A DNA stretch of 32,000 nucleotides from Nostoc punctiforme PCC 73102 (GCF_000020025.1 NC_010628.1:960001-992000); one strand, 5' to 3'. Numbered from the stretch's first letter, positions 2,595 through 26,695 are shown. The notes: generated from the letters alone by a model not told the origin. A program made the numbers and translations.

Positions 2595-3239
2595 ATGGTA
2601 ACAACAGCAAAATTCGCAGAAACTAGGGATGTGCTGCAAAACATCAGCTGGCAGACATTCAAAGCTATGCTGGCAGATATGGGATCTGAGCGAAATAAAA
2701 GGCTAGCTTATGACAACGGAATAGTAGAAATTATGACTCCGCTAATGCCGCACGAGAATTCAAACCGTCTCATCGAAGGTTTTGTTCTTGTGTTGTGTGA
2801 AGAATTTGGTTTAGAAGTTAAAAGCGCTGGCTCATTGACTATGATGCGGGATGACTTGGAGCAAGGAGGCGAGCCGGACAGTAGTTACTATATCCAAAAT
2901 GAATTCTTAGTCCGCAACAAAGAAAATATTGACCTGAATACAGACCCACCACCAGATATAGTACTGGAAGTGGAATATTCCAGACCCAAGATAGACAAGT
3001 TAAGCCTTTATGCTTCAATGGGAGTCCCAGAATTCTGGCGGTATAACGGAAATGTCTTGAGGATCTACACCCTTAACAGTGGACAATACTCGCAAAGCGA
3101 TCGCAGTCCAACTTTTGCGCCTGTTTTGGTGACGGAGATTCCCCAATTTATCCAAGAAAGCAAGAAAGTTGGACAAATAGCAGCAACTCGTGCTTTCCGT
3201 ACCTGGGTTAGACAACAGATATCTACAGCAAGGCAATAA
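2595..3239 (+). CDS. Uma2-family (DUF820) putative restriction-endonuclease-like protein
   Basis: 214 aa. Shows the typical cyanobacterial Uma2 pattern: ISWQTFKAML, YDNGIVEIMTP, PDIVLEVEYS, VPEFWRY. Confidence 0.8.
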   Translation: MVTTAKFAETRDVLQNISWQTFKAMLADMGSERNKRLAYDNGIVEIMTPLMPHENSNRLIEGFVLVLCEEFGLEVKSAGSLTMMRDDLEQGGEPDSSYYIQNEFLVRNKENIDLNTDPPPDIVLEVEYSRPKIDKLSLYASMGVPEFWRYNGNVLRIYTLNSGQYSQSDRSPTFAPVLVTEIPQFIQESKKVGQIAATRAFRTWVRQQISTARQ

Positions 3240-14510: not shown

Positions 14511-14809
14511 TCTAGCTTTCTACTCGACTTCTGGGATGAGGGTTTTAGTTTGCACGATTTCTTTTAACACTAAGTCACTTATCCCACGCAGGCAAGCAAG
14601 AAAGTATTTACCTTTGCAAACCATTAATCTAGATACAAGTAGGTCAATCGCATCTTTTGGCCTGAAACCAGCCAATTCTAGCTAGATTCTTCTAATTCCT
14701 TGTGTCAAACCTGATTGAGATGCTCTTACCCTGGAAAAGTTGTCATCATCAATTTTCTGTCTTGGAGTTACGATCAATATAGTAAACGTTGTATCTGATA
14801 TACAAAATC

Positions 14810-15025
14810 ATGCTACCTTTTAAGAAAAAAATTGTGACTGATGAAGCCATGCGTCCGGTAGCAGTGTTGATTGATTATCAGGACTGGCAGCAAATTGAGA
14901 AGATATTAGAAGCTCATCAATCACAACAAAAACAAGAGTTTAATTTAAACCACTATGCAGGTGTAATTCAACTAACTCAAGACCCTTTGGAATATCAGAA
15001 GCAAATTAGGGATGAGTGGTGTTGA
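14810..15025 (+). CDS. Putative type II antitoxin (VapB-like partner of the PIN toxin)
   Basis: 71 aa from ATG 14810. RPVAVLIDYQDWQQIEKILE. Its stop (TGA 15023-15025) overlaps the start region of the downstream PIN gene. Confidence 0.65.
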   Translation: MLPFKKKIVTDEAMRPVAVLIDYQDWQQIEKILEAHQSQQKQEFNLNHYAGVIQLTQDPLEYQKQIRDEWC

Positions 15026-15390
15026 CACAAGCTTTGATTTTTTTAGATACAAATGTAGTTTTGTACTTTTTGGGTGGTCGCTTGGTAAACCCACTATCAT
15101 CAGGACAATATTTTATTTCAGTGATTACTGAGATTGAATTACTCTCTTATCCGAGTCTCAGTCTAGAAGAAGAAACACAAATTGTTGATTTTTTAAATAA
15201 AATTCCAGTTGTTGGTATTGATAATAATATTAAAAAGTTAGCAATTGCAATTTGGAAACAACACAAACTCAGGCTTCCTGACGCAATAATTGCAGCAACT
15301 GCAAAATTTCTAAATGCAACATTGTTTACAAATGATGTAAGATTGGTTAATTTAACAGAAATTAATACTCAGTCAGTGCAAATTGTGTAA
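15016..15390 (+). CDS. vapC: PIN-domain toxin VapC
   Basis: 124 aa. The PIN acidic residues lie in FLDTNVV, ITEIELLS, LPDAIIAATA and FTNDVRL. Confidence 0.85.
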   Translation: MVLTQALIFLDTNVVLYFLGGRLVNPLSSGQYFISVITEIELLSYPSLSLEEETQIVDFLNKIPVVGIDNNIKKLAIAIWKQHKLRLPDAIIAATAKFLNATLFTNDVRLVNLTEINTQSVQIV

Positions 15391-15499: not shown

Positions 15500-16000
15500 C
15501 TATCTCTTTCGCAACTGTATTAGCTGTTGTTGAATTTGAATCACCTGTTGCTTTTGCTCTAAAGTTTCATATAGCTTCTGTGCCTCTCTCAAATTAAGGA
15601 CTGCTTGCTCTTTCTTTCCAGTGGCTACAAACACATCTGCCAGACCCTTTTGGGCTATGGCTTGCTGGTTGACATCGGTTGCGCGTTGCAACCCTTGACG
15701 ATAACTAGACTCCGACTGAGGATATTTTTTCTGTAGCCCATAGAAATAGCCTAGAAGTAAGTAATCATCTCCTGTTGCTTTTTCTTCTCTGATTGCATTT
15801 TTCAGTCTCGCAATTTGTTCATCAGGCGGTTTATTCGGAGGACCACTGTTACCGCCTTTACCAAGGATTATGCACACCCATAACACATATTGGCACTTAT
15901 CAGCTTGGGCAATACAAGTATTAATTGCTAACACGGCAGTTATGAGCGTTAAGGTCAAAACTGTAGAAAGGGACTTGTTAAGATACATCAACATTTGCAT
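15500..16000 (-). CDS. Secreted or lipid-anchored TPR-like protein
   Basis: 166 aa. N-terminal signal-like hydrophobic segment LSTVLTLTLITAVLAINTCIAQA, then TPR-like helices (YLLLGYFYGLQKKYPQSESSYRQGLQ). Confidence 0.65.
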   Translation of the reverse strand: MQMLMYLNKSLSTVLTLTLITAVLAINTCIAQADKCQYVLWVCIILGKGGNSGPPNKPPDEQIARLKNAIREEKATGDDYLLLGYFYGLQKKYPQSESSYRQGLQRATDVNQQAIAQKGLADVFVATGKKEQAVLNLREAQKLYETLEQKQQVIQIQQQLIQLRKR

Positions 16001-16078: not shown

Positions 16079-16108
16079 TATAATAGTACCCTTGAGGGTA
16101 CTATTATA
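16079..16108. other. Perfect 13-bp inverted repeat with a 4-nt loop
   Basis: TATAATAGTACCC-ttga-GGGTACTATTATA, between the ATPase-TM-TPR gene and the secreted TPR gene. Confidence 0.9.
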
Positions 16109-16177: not shown

Positions 16178-18142
16178 CTAATAATCAGAACCAATGCGTT
16201 GCTTTGCAAAATCAATCCAAACCTTCTCATCGGGGTGTTCTGGATCACCAAATTTCCGGCATTTCTGCCATTGAGTCAGTGCTTCCTTCTTGCTACCCTT
16301 GCTTTCTAATACTTGTGCTAGTAAGCAGTGAGCCGACCCGATCTTTTCCTCTATGACAATAGCTTCTCGTAGGGTAGACTCAGCGTCTGCATAGCGTTTT
16401 TGCCCGAATTGTGCCCAACCCAAGTTTTTGAAAAGGGCATACTTCACCCTATCTACTGGTTGTAGTTTCAAACCTTTCAAGAGTAGTGCAATAGCTTGGG
16501 GATATTCTTTCTCCAAAATATACAGGCGAGCTAATTCACTGTAAGCTGAGGGGAAATTTTCTTCCCGTATAGCAGCTTCTAAGTTGTTGCGGGCATTATT
16601 TAAGTCGTTTAATTTTATATAAACTAATGCCCGGTTGTAGTAGGCTCTTTCGTAGCCCGAGTTTAATAAAAGTGCTAAATCGTATGCCTGTAATGCTGTT
16701 TGCATTTTACCAGTCTGGTAAAATTCCAGCCCTACATTGTTGAACAAAATAGCTGTCTGTTTCGCCGTAAGAATAATGGTGATGCCAGCCAACAAAAAGC
16801 CTATGATCGTAGTAACAACCCCTACACGAATGCCTGCTTTCTTTGCTTTTGTTTCTGCCTTCAAAGCAATTTGAAAGTTTCGTTTGTCGAGTTCTTGGCT
16901 GGCGGTTAAAAATTGATAATCTTGCTGATTCAGATTTTTGTCAGCCGCCCATACCATAGCATCCTGCAACGCTTGTCCCCGAAGCAAGCGTGACTCATCT
17001 TTACTCCCGTTAGCTATCCAGGTATTTAGTGCCTCTGCATACGGTCGAAGTTCCGCCAGAGCTTTATTAACCCAAAGCTCATTAAAAACCATTGCATAAA
17101 TGCTGTTATAAGTTCTCAGCTTGGACTCACGTCTGACTACCAATCCTGTCAGCCTTAATTCCATTTGTTCTGTGCTGTCATCGGCTAGCACTTCTTTTTG
17201 TTGCAAAATTTGCTGATATAAACCTAGTAACCTACCAGCACGTTGTTTATTATGCAAAATCCGATTGCGTATAGTTCTTAAATGCTCTGGCTCGTCTCGT
17301 GATTCCCAATTTTCGATGATGTGCGATCGCACCAATTCTTCAACACCAGCCGCTTCTATGTCAACATGGATGAGTTGACAAAGCTTCTGGGTAAGAAATG
17401 GTTGTCCACCCGTCCAAGCTAAAACCTCACCTAGCACTGCTTGGGGATTGCTAACTTTCCCCACTAATCCTTGGGCTAATAGTTTGGCTTCATGAAGTTG
17501 GAAACCGTTGAGTTCAATTGCTCTACCAATGTTAAATGGGGTGCGGTTTTTATCTTGAATCAAATCCGAGGGTGTAGCCACTCCTAGCAGCGTAAAAGTA
17601 AGACAGTTATACCGTGGCTTATCAGCACGCTGATTATAACAGTCTCGAATCAAAGCAAAAAAATCGTCAATCGAAAAACTCAGGCTGAGAATACTGTCGA
17701 TTTCATCTACAAAAATGACAATTGATTGAGACATCTCAACTAGCAGAACTTCTTCGATAAATTCGCTCAATCGCTGTACCGGAGAAAGATGATCGCGATC
17801 GCGCCACCAACTGCGTAAATGAAACTTTCCTGAAAGCTCAAAACTACTTACCAAAACACGTACTAAACCGGCATACCACTGATCTGGTGTAAGATACTGA
17901 CTACCAATCTTCGTCAAATCGATTCCCGCACAAGCAATGTCTTCATTTTGCAGCTTTTGCATAGTTTGCACTCGCAAGCTAGACTTGCCCATCTGCCGTG
18001 AGTTTAGAACATAACAAAATTCTCTAGCCTTTAATGCCACATACAAATCTGTATCTGCTTGTCGCACTACATAAGTAGGCGCATCAACTGGTAAACTGCC
18101 ACCAACTTGATATTCATAAGCTGAGTTTTGTTCTATGTTCAT
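16178..18142 (-). CDS. AAA-like (STAND/ORC-like) ATPase fused to one transmembrane helix and C-terminal TPR repeats
   Basis: 654 aa. N-terminus [24 protein letters not shown]. Walker A-like SRQMGKSS (aa 48-55) and Walker [10 protein letters not shown] (aa 141-149). Also [17 protein letters not shown] and a WH-like LTGLVV...[16 protein letters not shown] helix [23 protein letters not shown] (aa 438-460, nt 16763-16831), then about 5 TPR-like repeats. Confidence 0.85.
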
Positions 18143-19713
18143 CAGCTAACTCTCAAGCGATCGCGTAAATATTGACGATACAAATCACAACGTGGTGTTA
18201 CATCATTTCCTTGCTGTTGCAATAAGCCCATGCTGAGTAATTTAAAGCATTGTATCGAATCCAACCGAACTGGGCTAGTATTGGCAACTACTTTCTTGAT
18301 CGCAACAGCTAATTCTGGGCACTGTTCTAAATTCCACAAATGCCGACGTAAATGATCGCTATAAGGCCCAGCTTCTGTAGGTGCTGTTTGTAATAGCATA
18401 TTGAGCGTAGTATCCTGTCTCGCAATTTGATAAAGTCCTACTCGAACAAGATACGGATGCCCGCCCACCATTGCCATTAGTTGTTCAACTTGGGTAAAAC
18501 TCCAATTGAGCCCATGCCTTTGTGCCAAATCAAGAATCTGTTGGGCGTTGAACTCTGGTAACTCAATCGATAAGCCTACATTAAACGGCGATTGATTAAT
18601 ATTCATAGGAATATAGACTTCGGTGGAATGCACTACAACCATCCGCAGTTTTTTCCAAATCTCCCGATTTTTGCCATCCTCATGCCAAGCGCGTAATAGC
18701 CCAAAAAAGTCAGAGGCAATTTCAGGATGTTGGAATACACAATCGACTTCATCCAATCCCAAAACTATCGGTTTATTGATTTCTGCCAGAAGATACTCTT
18801 CAAAATAAGCGGTACAGTTATCTTTACTGCCAAAAATATCGTCCCAGTAGTCTGCTAACTTGTTGGGTATGCTCAACCTTCGTCCGACACTGGCACAAAA
18901 CCACTTAAGGAACTTATCCAAATCTGCAAAAACCTTTCCATCTGCCAATTGAAAACTCAAAGGCACGGTTAGATAATCTTGTTGTGACGCTCGATGAAGA
19001 ATGCGCGCCATAAGTGAGGTTTTACCCATCTGCCGGGGAGCTTTAATCCGAATCAAAGATCCTGGCTTCAAAATTGCCTCGTAGCAACGAGATTCGATGG
19101 GAAGACGCTCGATATAAAACGCCGAAGCCAAATCCACCTGTCCTTCAGGTAATTCTGGTTCTGCCACTGGCAAAGGCGGTGAGAGAGTCAGAGGGTGAGG
19201 GGGTGATGAAGGGAAAAAATCACTACTCATCTCTCCATCTGCCAATCTTTCTACATCCCCGTTTGCCAGTAAACTAAAAATTTCCTGTAAAATTTTGGCG
19301 GTATCAGTAGCCGACTTCCACTCTCGCTGCTGAATCTGTTGTAAATAACCCCGCAAATCATAATTTAGTGGCGTACTCCAAGTGAGGTTGACGCGAATGG
19401 GCAAAATCACTGGCTTATGCTCATCACTGCCATCCCGTAACTCTTTGGCCTGTCTCACCTCTTCTGTCACCATCTCGCTAGTTGCCGATCGCTCAGACAA
19501 CAGCAACAAAAAGTAATCACACTGTTTTAATTCTTCATCAATACGTTGAGGCCATTTTTCCCCTAAGCGAATACTTTCGCTTGCCATGAATGCTTCGTGT
19601 CCAGCAGTTTTAATAGCTTCATAAAAATCCTTGGCAAGGCTCAAGTCTGGATCTTGGCTGCGGTAGCTAATGAAAAATCTAGCGCTTTTGCTGGCTGCTG
19701 GCAAAGTTGGCAT
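18142..19713 (-). CDS. TIR-domain protein fused to an AAA-like (STAND/ORC-like) ATPase
   Basis: The ORF is open to a TTG at 19743, but ATG 19713 (MPTLPAAS) is the likelier start. TIR-like FFISYRSQD...[17 protein letters not shown]...[22 protein letters not shown]. Pro-rich linker [24 protein letters not shown]. Then [35 protein letters not shown] and a WH-like LLSMGLL...DLYRQYL. Its stop overlaps the start of the downstream gene (TGATG). Confidence 0.85.
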
Positions 19714-20083
19714 AGTCGGATAAATATCCAGAAATTTTGACAAATTTGACGATATTATTGCAATTTATGGAATCGAAGCCTAGTTTTTACTTTTTTCTAA
19801 ACAACTTACTAGTAGCCGATACTCGACCTACTGGTACATTTAGTAACTAAAATTTTGCCGCTATCCTCTGTATCCAGTTCTAAAAGTTTAGGAGCCATAA
19901 TTCAATTAGCTTGTAGCTATCTGCTAAAAAGGTCAGTAAAGTAGTTTTTAAAACACATTTATATAAATTTCTTAGTAAATAATTTTTCTTTGGAGGAAGT
20001 TTCCTTAAGAGAACTATCTCAAAAACTATACCAATAAACCAGTTTCCCTAAAAATTTACTTTTATCCCGTACCTTGCATCTAT

Positions 20084-21223
20084 ATGACTTCACAATCTTC
20101 TCGTTCTGGCAAAATTCTGGTAGTTGATGACTCTCCTGATAACGTGTTTTTGATCAAAACTATTTTGGAGGAAGAAGGTTACACCATTAGCACCGCAGAA
20201 AATGGTATTTCAGCCTTGGCAGAATTGAAAGCTTCTCCTTGTGACTTAGTTCTGCTGGATCTGATGATGCCAGATATGGATGGCTACGAAGTTACTAAGC
20301 ACATTCGCGGTGATATGAAATTGCCGCAATATATCCCCATACTACTGATTACTGCCCACGATGCGCCTAATGTCGCCCACGGTTTAGATTTGGGTGCTGA
20401 TGATTTTATCCGCAAACCTGTAACTGTAGATGAATTGCTGGCACGAGTGCGATCGCTCCTACGTTTGAAGCATAGTATGGATGAACGTGATGAAATTGCC
20501 CGCCAGCGAGAAGATTTTGTCTCTCGTCTCACCCACGATTTACGCACTCCCTTAGTGGCGGCCGATCGTATGTTGATGCTATTTCAGCAAGGTGCATTGG
20601 GAACATTATCACCACAAATGCACGAAGTAATCACCATTATGGCCCGTAGTAATATCAACCTGCTGACTATGGTCAATACCTTATTGGAAGTTTATCGCTT
20701 TGAAGCAGGTCGCAAAAGTTTGGCATTTCAACCAGTTAATCTAGGACGTTTGCTAGAGGAGGTGACTGGAGAATTAGCACCACTAGCTCAAGATAAAACA
20801 CTGTCGCTAAATTTGGATTTTACTGAAGAGTCAAACACAGTTATGGGCGATCGCTTAGAATTGCATCGTCTATTTACAAACCTTATCGGCAATGCGATCA
20901 AATTTACCAATTCCGGGTCTGTGACTATTCGTTTTACTTCTCAACGACAGTTAGACAAAAGTAGTCAATCTCAGTTATCAGGAAAATCCAATTCCGTTGA
21001 ATATATTAGCATTGAGATCGCGGATACTGGCCCAGGTATTCCCACCGAAGAACAAGCCACCATATTTGAACGATTTCGTCAAGGTAGTCACAAGAGTTCT
21101 GGTAGTGGCTTAGGACTCTACCTTGCTCGTCGAATTGTCGAGGCACATCAAGGCATTATTTTGCTGAATTCTGAATTGGGGAAAGGTAGTGTATTTATTG
21201 TCCTTTTACCCGCCACAACATGA
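20084..21223 (+). CDS. Hybrid response regulator / histidine kinase (REC-HisKA-HATPase_c)
   Basis: 379 aa. REC: ILVVDDSPDN, LVLLDLMMPDMDG. H-box: SRLTHDLRTPL. N-box: NLIGNAIKFT. G-boxes: DTGPGI, GSGLGL. Confidence 0.92.
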   Translation: MTSQSSRSGKILVVDDSPDNVFLIKTILEEEGYTISTAENGISALAELKASPCDLVLLDLMMPDMDGYEVTKHIRGDMKLPQYIPILLITAHDAPNVAHGLDLGADDFIRKPVTVDELLARVRSLLRLKHSMDERDEIARQREDFVSRLTHDLRTPLVAADRMLMLFQQGALGTLSPQMHEVITIMARSNINLLTMVNTLLEVYRFEAGRKSLAFQPVNLGRLLEEVTGELAPLAQDKTLSLNLDFTEESNTVMGDRLELHRLFTNLIGNAIKFTNSGSVTIRFTSQRQLDKSSQSQLSGKSNSVEYISIEIADTGPGIPTEEQATIFERFRQGSHKSSGSGLGLYLARRIVEAHQGIILLNSELGKGSVFIVLLPATT

Positions 21224-24793: not shown

Positions 24794-26695
24794 ATGGCAA
24801 ATTACTGGGCGATCGCGATTGGCATCAATCACTATCAGTTATTTCAACCTTTAAGTTGTGCCCAAGCCGATGCTGAGGCACTAGAGGATTTTTTGGTGAC
24901 AGAGGCAGGCTTTCTCCCCAAACATTGCCTGCTAATGACGGATACTTCGCCGCCAATTGGAGATCGATCAACTTATCCAACTAAAGAGAATATTCTGCTG
25001 CTGCTTGAGGATTTGGCAGCCACAAGTTGGCAACCGGAAGACTATCTGTGGTTATTCTTTAGCGGTTATGGAGTGAATTACAAGGGCAAAGATTACTTAA
25101 TGCCAGCAGAGGGCAACCCCGAACTCGTGCAAGAGACTGGCATAGAATTGCGATCGCTAATGCAAAGTCTCCAACTTGCTGACTTGAATGTATTGCTACT
25201 ACTTGATATCAACCGCGCTTTTGGCACTCAAGCTGATGCTCCCGTTGGTGAAGAAACAATAGAACTAGCCCAAGAACTACAACTAGCGACAATTCTTTCT
25301 TGTCAACCAGAACAATTTTCCCACGAAAGTAGCGAATTAGGTCACGGATTCTTTACAGCAGCTTTATTAGAAGCTTTGCGTTCTGGTAATGGCAGTAACC
25401 TGTCAGATTTAGAAAGTTACCTAAGTCTGCTCATGCCAAAATTATGTCACCACCACTGGCGGCCTGTCCAAAACCCTGCAACTATCATCCCATCAAGGGC
25501 ACAGATAATCTTGCCAGAATTGGCAATGGAAAGTGACTTTGAAGCAAATCCGGTGATTTATCCTGAAGAATCTTTTGCTGTTGCTCTTGCAGCCCCTCCC
25601 CTTGACGATTACCCCAGAACTTCAGCAGAACGGGGCAGATGGGGAGAAGCTACTGTGAACTCCTCCCAGCAGGTGAAGGCTTATAAGGTTGAGAAGCCTA
25701 AAGGTCAACCAGTCCAGGAGTCAGCTACTAGCTTAGTTTCCCAGCCAATGGCGGAAACTTCTTTAGGAGCGAATCCCAAGGGAAGATTTATCCCTAATTC
25801 CTCCAAAGGTTACGTCTCTCGATTGCCATCAAATCAGCCAAGTCTCCCTTTTTGGAAACAGTTTATCTTGTGGGGTGGAGGCAGCTTGCTAGTAGCAGGT
25901 TTAATTGCTGTAGTTTTTCTTCGCAATCAAGAAACTTTTAGAATTAAGCCAATATCAAGCACATCGCCTAATGCTACTGCTAGCGATCGCCAGGTAATTG
26001 AGAATTTACCAAGCGATGTCTCCGACGAGCTACGCCTACGCACTTCAGTTGTTAGACTTAACAATCAATCTAGCGCCGAAATCATCTCTACTTCCGAGTC
26101 GAAAAAGCGGAATCAAGCAGTATTAGACTTGGCAAAAATGTCGCTCAGACAAACTCAGGCTAGCGATTTGAGTATGGCGATCGCTACAGCCCGGAAAATT
26201 AAACCTGGTGAACCACTGTACGAACAAGCTCAGGAAAATATTAAGATTTGGAGCCGAATGATTTTAGATTTAGCAGAGGGTCGTGCTAAACAAAGACAGT
26301 ATGCTAGCGCTATTGCCGCCGCTCGATTAATTACCAAAGATGAAGCCCCCTACGCCAAAGCACAAGCAGTAATTAACCTGTGGCGGCTAGAGGGTAAGCA
26401 GTATGTGAGTAACAAAACTCTTTTAGATGCAGCTAATGCCTTAATTAAGTCTGGACAGGCATCTACCTACAATCGGGCGATCGAAGTTGCCAAGAAAGTA
26501 CCAGCAGGTCAACCAGGCTTTGATAGTGCCCAAAAGTCGATCAATAAATGGAGTGAGAAAATTTTAGACCTGGCCAAGCGTCGCGCTGCCGAAGGAGATC
26601 GCAATGCGGCAATTGCGACTGCTGCGTTAGTGCCAGAGGAAACAGCCGCTTATGAAGATGCTCAGGATGCCATTCAAAAATGGCAAAAGAAATAG
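24794..26695 (+). CDS. Pseudo-orthocaspase: a caspase-like (C14) domain lacking the His-Cys dyad, then a TM helix and a repeated C-terminal domain
   Basis: 633 aa. The p20-like region is YWAIAIGINHY ... LWLFFSGYG (Tyr92 where His is expected) ... LLLLDINRAFG (Asn140 where Cys is expected). TM helix FILWGGGSLLVAGLIAVVFL. The C-terminus holds four copies of a roughly 35-aa A..A..I......Y..AQ..I..W repeat. Confidence 0.8.
   Translation: MANYWAIAIGINHYQLFQPLSCAQADAEALEDFLVTEAGFLPKHCLLMTDTSPPIGDRSTYPTKENILLLLEDLAATSWQPEDYLWLFFSGYGVNYKGKDYLMPAEGNPELVQETGIELRSLMQSLQLADLNVLLLLDINRAFGTQADAPVGEETIELAQELQLATILSCQPEQFSHESSELGHGFFTAALLEALRSGNGSNLSDLESYLSLLMPKLCHHHWRPVQNPATIIPSRAQIILPELAMESDFEANPVIYPEESFAVALAAPPLDDYPRTSAERGRWGEATVNSSQQVKAYKVEKPKGQPVQESATSLVSQPMAETSLGANPKGRFIPNSSKGYVSRLPSNQPSLPFWKQFILWGGGSLLVAGLIAVVFLRNQETFRIKPISSTSPNATASDRQVIENLPSDVSDELRLRTSVVRLNNQSSAEIISTSESKKRNQAVLDLAKMSLRQTQASDLSMAIATARKIKPGEPLYEQAQENIKIWSRMILDLAEGRAKQRQYASAIAAARLITKDEAPYAKAQAVINLWRLEGKQYVSNKTLLDAANALIKSGQASTYNRAIEVAKKVPAGQPGFDSAQKSINKWSEKILDLAKRRAAEGDRNAAIATAALVPEETAAYEDAQDAIQKWQKK

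Follow-up and report, generated by a model that had tools for sequence, protein, structure and literature searches.

A candidate split NLR-like sensor/effector pair built on two AAA_35 NTPases in Nostoc punctiforme PCC 73102

To our knowledge, each STAND/NLR-like immune protein of bacteria consists of one chain and detects phage proteins in the cytoplasm. Paired or networked NLRs occur in plants (RRS1-RPS4, RGA5-RGA4 and the NRC networks) and in animals (NAIP-NLRC4). Multicellular cyanobacteria show an enrichment of the VMAP/iSTAND MoxR-vWA ternary conflict systems (Kaur et al. 2020, PMC7159879). Two adjacent minus-strand genes of Nostoc punctiforme PCC 73102, here called A and B, were analysed within a stretch of 32,000 nucleotides (GCF_000020025.1, NC_010628.1:960001-992000; "the window", with positions counted from its first letter) and compared with these systems. 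Gene A encodes a TIR-AAA_35 protein and gene B an AAA_35 protein with a predicted transmembrane (TM) helix and TPRs; the best explanation of the two, held with moderate confidence, is a split NLR-like sensor/effector pair with a role in conflict or cell death.

Domain make-up of the two proteins

The initial annotation of the window had placed two open reading frames (ORFs) between 16178 and 19743 on the minus strand. The ORF at 16178-18142 was found as described, and its product, protein B, has the same sequence as ACC79575.1 / WP_012407597.1. The upstream limit of gene A was corrected from 19743 to the ATG at 19713, the start given by the gene callers and the closest homologues (523 amino acids, aa); the TTG at 19743 (533 aa) is mechanical only. 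Residues of A are numbered throughout in the 533-aa frame of this mechanical ORF. The claimed one-base overlap of the genes was seen in the sequence (TGATG), and all motifs quoted earlier, GGHPYL and GGQPFL included, were recovered in the translations of A and B. The features of the pair, with AlphaFold abbreviated to AF2, are listed below.

18142-19713, minus strand: gene A, TIR-AAA_35, candidate effector-bearing NTPase subunit, 523 aa, ATG at 19713 (ORF, Pfam)
16178-18142, minus strand: gene B, AAA_35-TM-TPR, predicted membrane-anchored NTPase subunit, 654 aa (ORF, Pfam)
18140-18144, minus strand: TGATG junction, with one base common to the A stop codon and the B start codon
19318-19677, minus strand: TIR domain of A, aa 23-142 (Pfam TIR_2, E = 1.4e-18)
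19459-19461, minus strand: codon of E95 of A, the Glu at the catalytic position, in SEMVTEEV (alignment to PdTIR chain 4c7m)
19135-19236, minus strand: Pro-rich linker of A between TIR and NTPase, aa 170-203, predicted to be disordered (AF2 pLDDT <50)
18163-19152, minus strand: A-type AAA_35 module, aa 198-527 (Pfam E = 1.4e-156), with nucleotide-binding domain, helical lid and winged helix
19021-19023, minus strand: Walker A K241 of A (invariant columns)
18748-18753, minus strand: Walker B D331/E332 of A (invariant columns)
aa 427-430 of A, minus strand: GxP-like motif GGHP (invariant columns)
17081-18100, minus strand: B-type AAA_35 module, aa 15-354 (Pfam E = 2.1e-33)
17984-17986, minus strand: Walker A K53 of B (invariant columns)
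17702-17707, minus strand: Walker B D146/E147 of B (invariant columns)
aa 245-248 of B, minus strand: GxP-like motif GGQP (invariant columns)
16835-17080, minus strand: helical stalk of B, aa 355-436, between winged helix and membrane (AF2 helices, family consensus)
16757-16825, minus strand: single predicted TM helix of B, about aa 440-462 (Kyte-Doolittle)
16193-16750, minus strand: about five TPR repeats of B, aa 465-650, predicted to be extracytoplasmic (Pfam TPRs, AF2)

Protein A is composed of a TIR_2 domain, a disordered Pro-rich linker and an AAA_35 module. Domain annotation of both proteins gave no sensor domain in A (Pfam) and no effector domain in B, as had been proposed. The TIR-like N-terminus with a Glu at the catalytic position was likewise borne out: besides the TIR_2 profile match, the alignment to PdTIR chain 4c7m sets E95 on the Glu of 'W-P-x-x-E-L', the catalytic residue conserved in bacterial TIR NADases, and E94 and E95 are invariant in 75/75 family members. 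The TIR domain of A keeps an intact Glu at the catalytic position and may act as an NADase.

The NTPase and winged-helix module said to be common to both proteins was recognised by Pfam as AAA_35 (PF14516; A 520.8 bits, B 116 bits; gathering threshold 27 bits). In the AlphaFold models (mean pLDDT 84.6 for A and 89.6 for B), each module is laid out as a nucleotide-binding domain, a helical lid and a winged helix, and the nearest solved folds are those of ORC/Cdc6 and STAND/NLR proteins. At 25% identity over 222 aa (E = 1e-13), the two modules can be regarded as clear but old paralogues. Walker A (R..GK.S; GK(T/S)S), Walker B (hhhhDE(V/I)D) and GG.P are invariant across both subfamilies, so both NTPase subunits look catalytically competent.

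Of the features that characterise STAND proteins, a P-loop with the Walker A Lys and the Walker B acidic residues is present in both subfamilies, and the tripartite order of nucleotide-binding domain, helical domain and winged helix in both modules. The typical union of effector, NTPase and sensor on one chain is found in neither A nor B. Leipe et al. are said to have given in 2004, as STAND motifs outside the P-loop, a GxP in the helical domain and a conserved Arg that precedes Walker A. Both subfamilies have an invariant GG(H/Q)P and, further upstream, an invariant Y-V-x-R, which were matched to these STAND motifs by position only.

Foldseek searches with A gave the plant TIR-NLR RPP1 as top match (E = 7e-12, spanning TIR and NB-ARC), with archaeal ORC2/Cdc6, Avs3 and CED-4 among the further matches. 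With B, the STAND-TPR protein 6mfv came first, then Avs5, Avs3, SAMD9 and MalT among many TPR matches. The matches predicted by the initial annotation were obtained, TIR and AAA_35 with Pfam and STAND-like folds with Foldseek. Since the nearest folds are RPP1, ORC2/Cdc6, CED-4, Avs proteins and 6mfv, AAA_35 is assigned from the models to the ORC/Cdc6-STAND class of NTPases. A sequence search of the PDB gave no solved AAA_35 structure and matched only TIR and TPR relatives.

In protein B, the NTPase is followed by the conserved stalk and one strong hydrophobic segment (aa 440-458, Kyte-Doolittle mean 2.52). The end of the stalk is the family-wide breakpoint at which C-terminal modules are swapped. 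Seven K/R residues lie in the 20 aa preceding the segment and one after it; because of this asymmetry, the NTPase is predicted to lie in the cytoplasm and the TPRs outside, in the periplasm or the thylakoid lumen. Pfam TPR_1/2/8/16 matches cover aa 465-630, and the model of B shows a long helix through the membrane region followed by ten TPR helices (pLDDT >90). Hydrophobicity and the K/R asymmetry hence agree with the layout proposed earlier, in which NTPase and TPRs lie on opposite sides of the membrane.

Pairing and module exchange across genomes

The A and B families each gave more than 7,400 homologue matches, for the most part cyanobacterial wherever the source was named, and some genomes carry several family copies. 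Bit scores of about 330-860 were obtained within the same subfamily and of 25-75 across subfamilies; because the former lie far above the latter, the A-B pair is considered not to be a recent tandem duplication, and the subfamilies to be anciently distinct. TIR-AAA_35 genes (61-64% identical) at two loci, L032 and L064, are labelled 'Actinomycetota bacterium MAG69'. As all other named matches are cyanobacterial, these are probably mis-binned cyanobacterial contigs.

An A-seeded set of 80 genome loci, 75 of them with room downstream, was used to follow the pairing, with every ORF typed against the A-type and B-type modules. A same-strand B-type gene lay downstream of A in 57/75 loci and a B-type gene elsewhere in 2/75. 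Among the 57, the two genes were separated by up to 60 bp or overlapped in 29, were 61-300 bp apart in 7 and had other genes inserted in 21. Thus 36 pairs lie within 300 bp, and 13 of the 29 tightest overlap by 1, 4 or 44-49 nt. The reverse test, on B-seeded metagenome loci, placed an A-type gene immediately upstream in 11/12 of those with upstream sequence; several of these A-types are without TIR. The initial annotation had staked its reading on synteny in other genomes, and the pairing is kept in both directions.

Clustering of the A-type module (50% identity, E <= 1e-30) gave 2,146 representatives, of which 150 were surveyed for domains. Full-length A and B modules are fused in one chain, in either order, in 8/150 (P0242, P0253, P0250, P0258, P0323, P0342, P0343 and P0361); P0242 reads Trypsin-TIR-A-B and P0250 B-A, and a ninth fusion, P0313, has a partial B module only. 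Tandem modules were found as B-B (P0122-P0130 and P0152) and A-A (P0241), and A-B-B gene arrays occur. The A and B NTPase identity matrices of 42 adjacent pairs are correlated (Mantel r = 0.71, reached by 0/2000 permutations), a correlation partly confounded by species phylogeny. On these comparisons, the pairing of A and B is judged not to be due to chance.

All-against-all clustering of the flanking ORFs (97 loci) gave no conserved third gene, except Trypco1 beside trypsin-type A. This gene (PF19493, E = 4e-18; for example L010:4873-5217, plus strand, and 11 other loci) stands directly upstream of A genes with an extra N-terminal trypsin, and the linkage ties the AAA_35 pair to the Trypco-trypsin module of the VMAP ternary systems. 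At four loci (L046, L048, L061 and L073), a secreted protein of about 600 aa with a two-partner secretion (TPS) domain (PF05860, E = 4e-42) is encoded between A and B; the contigs with this insert carry the labels Stenomitos, Leptolyngbya and Lyngbya.

The two subfamilies carry their partner domains at opposite ends. The A-type NTPase is almost always C-terminal, with its partners N-terminal wherever their position was checked: TIR in 33 of the 150 representatives, CHAT in 15, Ser/Thr kinase in 14, cNMP cyclase in at least 8, the LuxR/sigma helix-turn-helix (HTH) domains GerE in 8 and Sigma70_r4_2 in 4, and also trypsin, caspase, GGDEF and the effector-associated domains EAD1, EAD4 and EAD8. 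The B-type NTPase is N-terminal and is followed by TPR, PG_binding, HisKA-HATPase, periplasmic binding protein, WD40, CHASE2, PAS/GAF, trypsin or CHAT. Family members with C-termini of periplasmic type (TPR, PG_binding or ANF_receptor) have a single TM helix at the position seen in B, and no TM helix follows the B-type module in HisKA-HATPase, PAS/GAF and most WD40 members.

The exchange of modules can be followed at one chromosomal site, where the pair is kept in 12 Nostocales genomes. Genes for a molybdopterin oxidoreductase, an aldehyde dehydrogenase and a hybrid response-regulator/kinase form one flank; on the other, PIN, NIL or response-regulator genes recur in 5/12 only. The A NTPase at this site is 80-93% identical to that of N. 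punctiforme and the B NTPase 63-89% identical up to about aa 419-436. In 10/12 genomes, the C-terminus of B is unrelated to that of N. punctiforme, the break in similarity falling just ahead of the TM helix; the modules found at this site are TPR, PG-binding, histidine kinase, periplasmic binding protein, WD40 and trypsin. At the same site in Nostoc sp. LEGE 12450 (L052, 6001-10331), the TIR domain is 90% identical, the A NTPase 49% and the B NTPase 63%, and B ends in a periplasmic binding protein, which suggests cassette-like replacement of the NTPase pair as a unit.

Proposed mechanism and alternatives

If A and B divide sensing and execution between them, B would be the receptor subunit, with NTPase, winged helix and stalk in the cytoplasm, a TM helix and an exchangeable extracytoplasmic module (here about five TPRs), and A the output subunit, with TIR, flexible linker and paralogous NTPase. 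Detection of a ligand or of an envelope perturbation by the outer module of B would be relayed through the TM helix and stalk and would switch the NTPase of B to an ATP-bound, assembly-competent state. Contacts between the NTPase modules would then allow B to nucleate a hetero-oligomer with A, in the manner of NAIP with NLRC4 and of plant sensor/helper NLRs. The clustered TIR domains would become active, and degradation of NAD+ or a nucleotide signal would lead to growth arrest or death of the affected filament cell. Physical interaction of A and B, the direction of signalling, NADase activity and the role in conflict or programmed cell death are thus predictions of the scheme. Synteny, co-variation and fusions lend indirect support to hetero-oligomerisation, NADase activity and the conflict role, and the joint replacement at L052 does so for a complex of A and B that depend on each other. 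Because histidine-kinase, trypsin and CHAT versions of B exist, the polarity in which B senses and A executes is the likeliest and not the only one.

Several observations weigh against this scheme. The N-terminal domains of many A proteins (Ser/Thr kinase, LuxR/sigma HTH, cyclase, GGDEF) are outputs known from ordinary signalling and fit general signal transduction as well as immunity, and B ends in some cases in an enzyme (HisKA-HATPase, trypsin, CHAT) and not in a sensor-like module. The flank of A holds no B-type gene in 16/75 A-seeded loci, mostly those of more distant Okeania/Microcoleus relatives; a number of A-types may function on their own or with a partner whose gene lies elsewhere. 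In the window, the neighbours of the pair are core genes of the chromosome (urease, GroES/EL, RNase J, dapA, asd), a setting unlike a defence island, and the phylogenetic share in the Mantel correlation lessens its weight.

Some of these points recur in the alternative that survives best, itself rather unlikely, in which the AAA_35 pair serves as a modular device for signal transduction across the membrane and corresponds, in two proteins, to the signal transduction ATPases of MalT/AfsR type. It would link cues from the envelope or from nutrients to varied outputs, with TIR as one among many; the TIR version would perhaps make a second messenger of nucleotide type to control development or stress responses. 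This alternative would account for the Ser/Thr kinase (14/150), GerE (8), Sigma70_r4_2 (4), cNMP cyclase and GGDEF N-termini of A, for the periplasmic binding protein, CHASE2, PAS/GAF and HisKA-HATPase C-termini of B, and for the core-genome setting with the same site kept in 12 Nostocales genomes. Most common at the N-terminus of A, however, are classic effectors of conflict or cell death (TIR 33/150, CHAT 15, caspase, trypsin with Trypco1, EAD1/4/8), and wholesale swapping of B C-termini at one site in close relatives is more typical of diversifying conflict systems than of sensors with a housekeeping role.

An improbable alternative reverses the polarity along the lines of the Kaur/Aravind ternary grammar: A would sense or generate the signal, its TIR, peptidase or cyclase domain being the signalling enzyme, and the hypervariable C-terminal module of B would be an envelope effector or a dominant-negative decoy. 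The N-terminal repertoire of A does mirror the VMAP/iSTAND N-termini, and the C-termini of B mirror the modules of the vWA component (repeats, peptidoglycan binding behind a TM helix, periplasmic binding proteins, kinases). Yet modules such as TPR, periplasmic binding protein, CHASE2 and PAS/GAF typically serve as inputs that bind ligands, no domain of A is a plausible candidate for recognition, and neither a MoxR nor a vWA gene is present among the annotated ORFs of the window. That A and B are neighbouring paralogues acting independently, each homo-oligomerising and adjacent by historical accident, would fit the B-B tandem fusions, in which B modules can self-pair, and the 16/75 A-seeded loci in which no B-type gene was found, but is very improbable given that order, strand and frequent stop/start overlap are kept across cyanobacterial orders despite about 25% identity, that the A+B fusions, the joint replacement at L052 and the co-variation point to coupling, and that the domain contents are complementary, each protein alone lacking either input or output.

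If the split between a sensing B and an executing A is true, the eukaryotic principle of paired sensor and helper NLRs would be present in bacteria, and extracytoplasmic sensing would be linked to an NLR-type switch. The component domains are known and the logic resembles that of NLRs; the split over two paralogous NTPases, the predicted transmembrane sensor subunit, the size of the family and the cassette-like swapping make the pair a strong lead for experiment. Tentatively, and falling short of what we would call probable, the pair may stand for the first prokaryotic sensor/helper 'paired NLR' and at once for a transmembrane NLR-like receptor, in which the sensor subunit reads a signal from outside the cytoplasm (for instance damage to the envelope, adsorption or ejection of a phage, a peptide or a glycan) by way of an exchangeable outer module and directly nucleates a cytosolic TIR, protease or cyclase executioner, within a large innate-immunity or programmed-cell-death family spread across the cyanobacteria. 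Current defence catalogues would then miss such a family. Neither PADLOC nor NCBIfam has a name for the large AAA_35 family, which points to unexplored biology in filamentous cyanobacteria; as N. punctiforme PCC 73102 is genetically tractable, the hypothesis of a split NLR is directly testable.

Genomic surroundings and comparison with known systems

Pfam annotation covered the ORFs of the window from 100 aa upward, all but five short ones. The features nearest to the pair are the following.

14789-15390, plus strand: RelB-like antitoxin and PIN toxin (vapBC), overlapping by 10 nt, convergent with the A-B operon
15500-16000, minus strand: small TPR_12 protein, 164-166 aa, with signal-like N-terminus and its own AAGGAG ribosome-binding site
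16079-16108: perfect 13 bp inverted repeat with 4-nt loop, TATAATAGTACCC-TTGA-GGGTACTATTATA, in the spacer between B and the small TPR gene
20084-21223, plus strand: hybrid response-regulator/histidine kinase, 379 aa, Response_reg-HisKA-HATPase, divergent from A

The vapBC module and the secreted TPR gene were present downstream as the initial annotation had described them, and neither is a conserved part of the A-B system. The small TPR_12 gene lies directly downstream of B after a 177-nt spacer; it was considered as a third component and rejected, as it accompanies the pair only in the closest relative (L002) and its similarity to B is generic TPR similarity. The vapBC pair was set aside too, since retention of PIN at the Nostocales site is ordinary synteny and PIN is absent elsewhere. 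A reading of the inverted repeat as an intrinsic terminator of the operon was not supported, no U-tract following it on the minus strand. The hybrid response-regulator/kinase gene is kept beside the pair in 12/12 orthologous Nostocales loci, which may reflect a common regulatory region or simple synteny.

Two further genes of the window were recorded. An orthocaspase of 633 aa with a long uncharacterised C-terminal region is encoded about 5 kb from the pair (24794-26695, plus strand; Peptidase_C14 E = 1e-16, PADLOC 'caspase' E = 3e-13). A putative restriction endonuclease of the Uma2 family (2595-3239, plus strand; PF05685, E = 2e-18) lies amid housekeeping genes; the Uma2 family is very common in cyanobacteria.

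No named system was matched, in line with the initial annotation. PADLOC v2 (Avs, bNACHT, TIR-NLR, Thoeris and others), one of the searches that had been proposed, gave only domain-level matches to TIR and trypsin and no NTPase match in six variants; there was no match at all for B or for the NTPase of four other family variants. NCBIfam holds no model for the AAA_35 region and gave no A-B system either. A description of the AAA_35 pair was not found in the literature that could be searched, and one may exist elsewhere under another name. No AAA_35 pair is described in Kaur 2020, Kaur 2021, Doré 2024 or the 2026 STAND survey, and the only real mention of AAA_35 that was found concerns an accessory domain on some cyanobacterial sigma factors.

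Thoeris resembles the pair in having two genes and a bacterial TIR protein, and the best TIR-profile matches of A were to ThsB-like models. It differs in its SIR2/SLOG or Macro ThsA partner, whereas the TIR of A is fused to an NTPase; an assignment to Thoeris was rejected on the lack of a ThsA-like gene in the window and on scores below the cut-offs (ThsB_TIR 17.1 against 21.2, ThcB4 32.5 against 220). The EACC1 two-gene system was likewise rejected, its components being different.

The VMAP/iSTAND systems share with A the vocabulary of N-termini (trypsin with Trypco1, caspase/CHAT, TIR, cyclase, EADs) and with B a component that is hypervariable at its C-terminus, where peptidoglycan-binding domains preceded by a TM helix are among the variants (PMC7159879). 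They are, however, ternary, with an inactive STAND protein and a chaperone pair, whereas A-B is binary, with two AAA_35 NTPases whose motifs are intact. No MoxR or vWA gene was present among the Pfam-annotated ORFs of the window, and assignment to these systems was rejected.

Single-chain STAND defence proteins (Avs1-5 and later families, bNACHT, TIR-NLR) have the same succession of P-loop, helical lid and winged helix as A and B, comparable TIR or protease effectors and TPR or WD40 modules, and an oligomerisation-activated logic that is expected here as well. In contrast to them, A and B split effector and sensor over two paralogous NTPases and place the sensor beyond a predicted TM helix. 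The ORC/Cdc6 AAA+ initiators are among the closest solved folds of AAA_35 (1w5s, 2v1u, 1fnn, 2qby), and their paralogous subunits hetero-oligomerise, as in the Orc1/Cdc6 heterodimer 2qby. A link to replication is not evident for A and B, and the GxP-like motif, together with the effector and sensor fusions, would bring AAA_35 nearer to STAND.

The comparison with paired NLRs extends to the arrangement as a whole. A alone has the TIR, nucleotide-binding, helical and winged-helix layout of a plant TIR-type NLR (TNL) without the LRR, with RPP1 as its top Foldseek match, and the A-B-B arrays resemble a helper that serves several sensors in NLR networks. Paired NLRs are built on NB-ARC or NACHT, whereas A and B are built on AAA_35 with both P-loops conserved and a sensor subunit that is predicted to span the membrane; many plant NLR pairs are head-to-head, and A and B are co-directional and translationally coupled. 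In both cases, linked paralogous NLR-type NTPases are concerned, one associated with recognition and the other with a cell-death effector, and nucleated hetero-oligomerisation is predicted for A and B. Sensor/helper paired NLRs are a class defined by function and not by homology, and at the level of sequence the locus presents their arrangement of two linked paralogous NLR-type proteins that divide recognition and execution modules between them.

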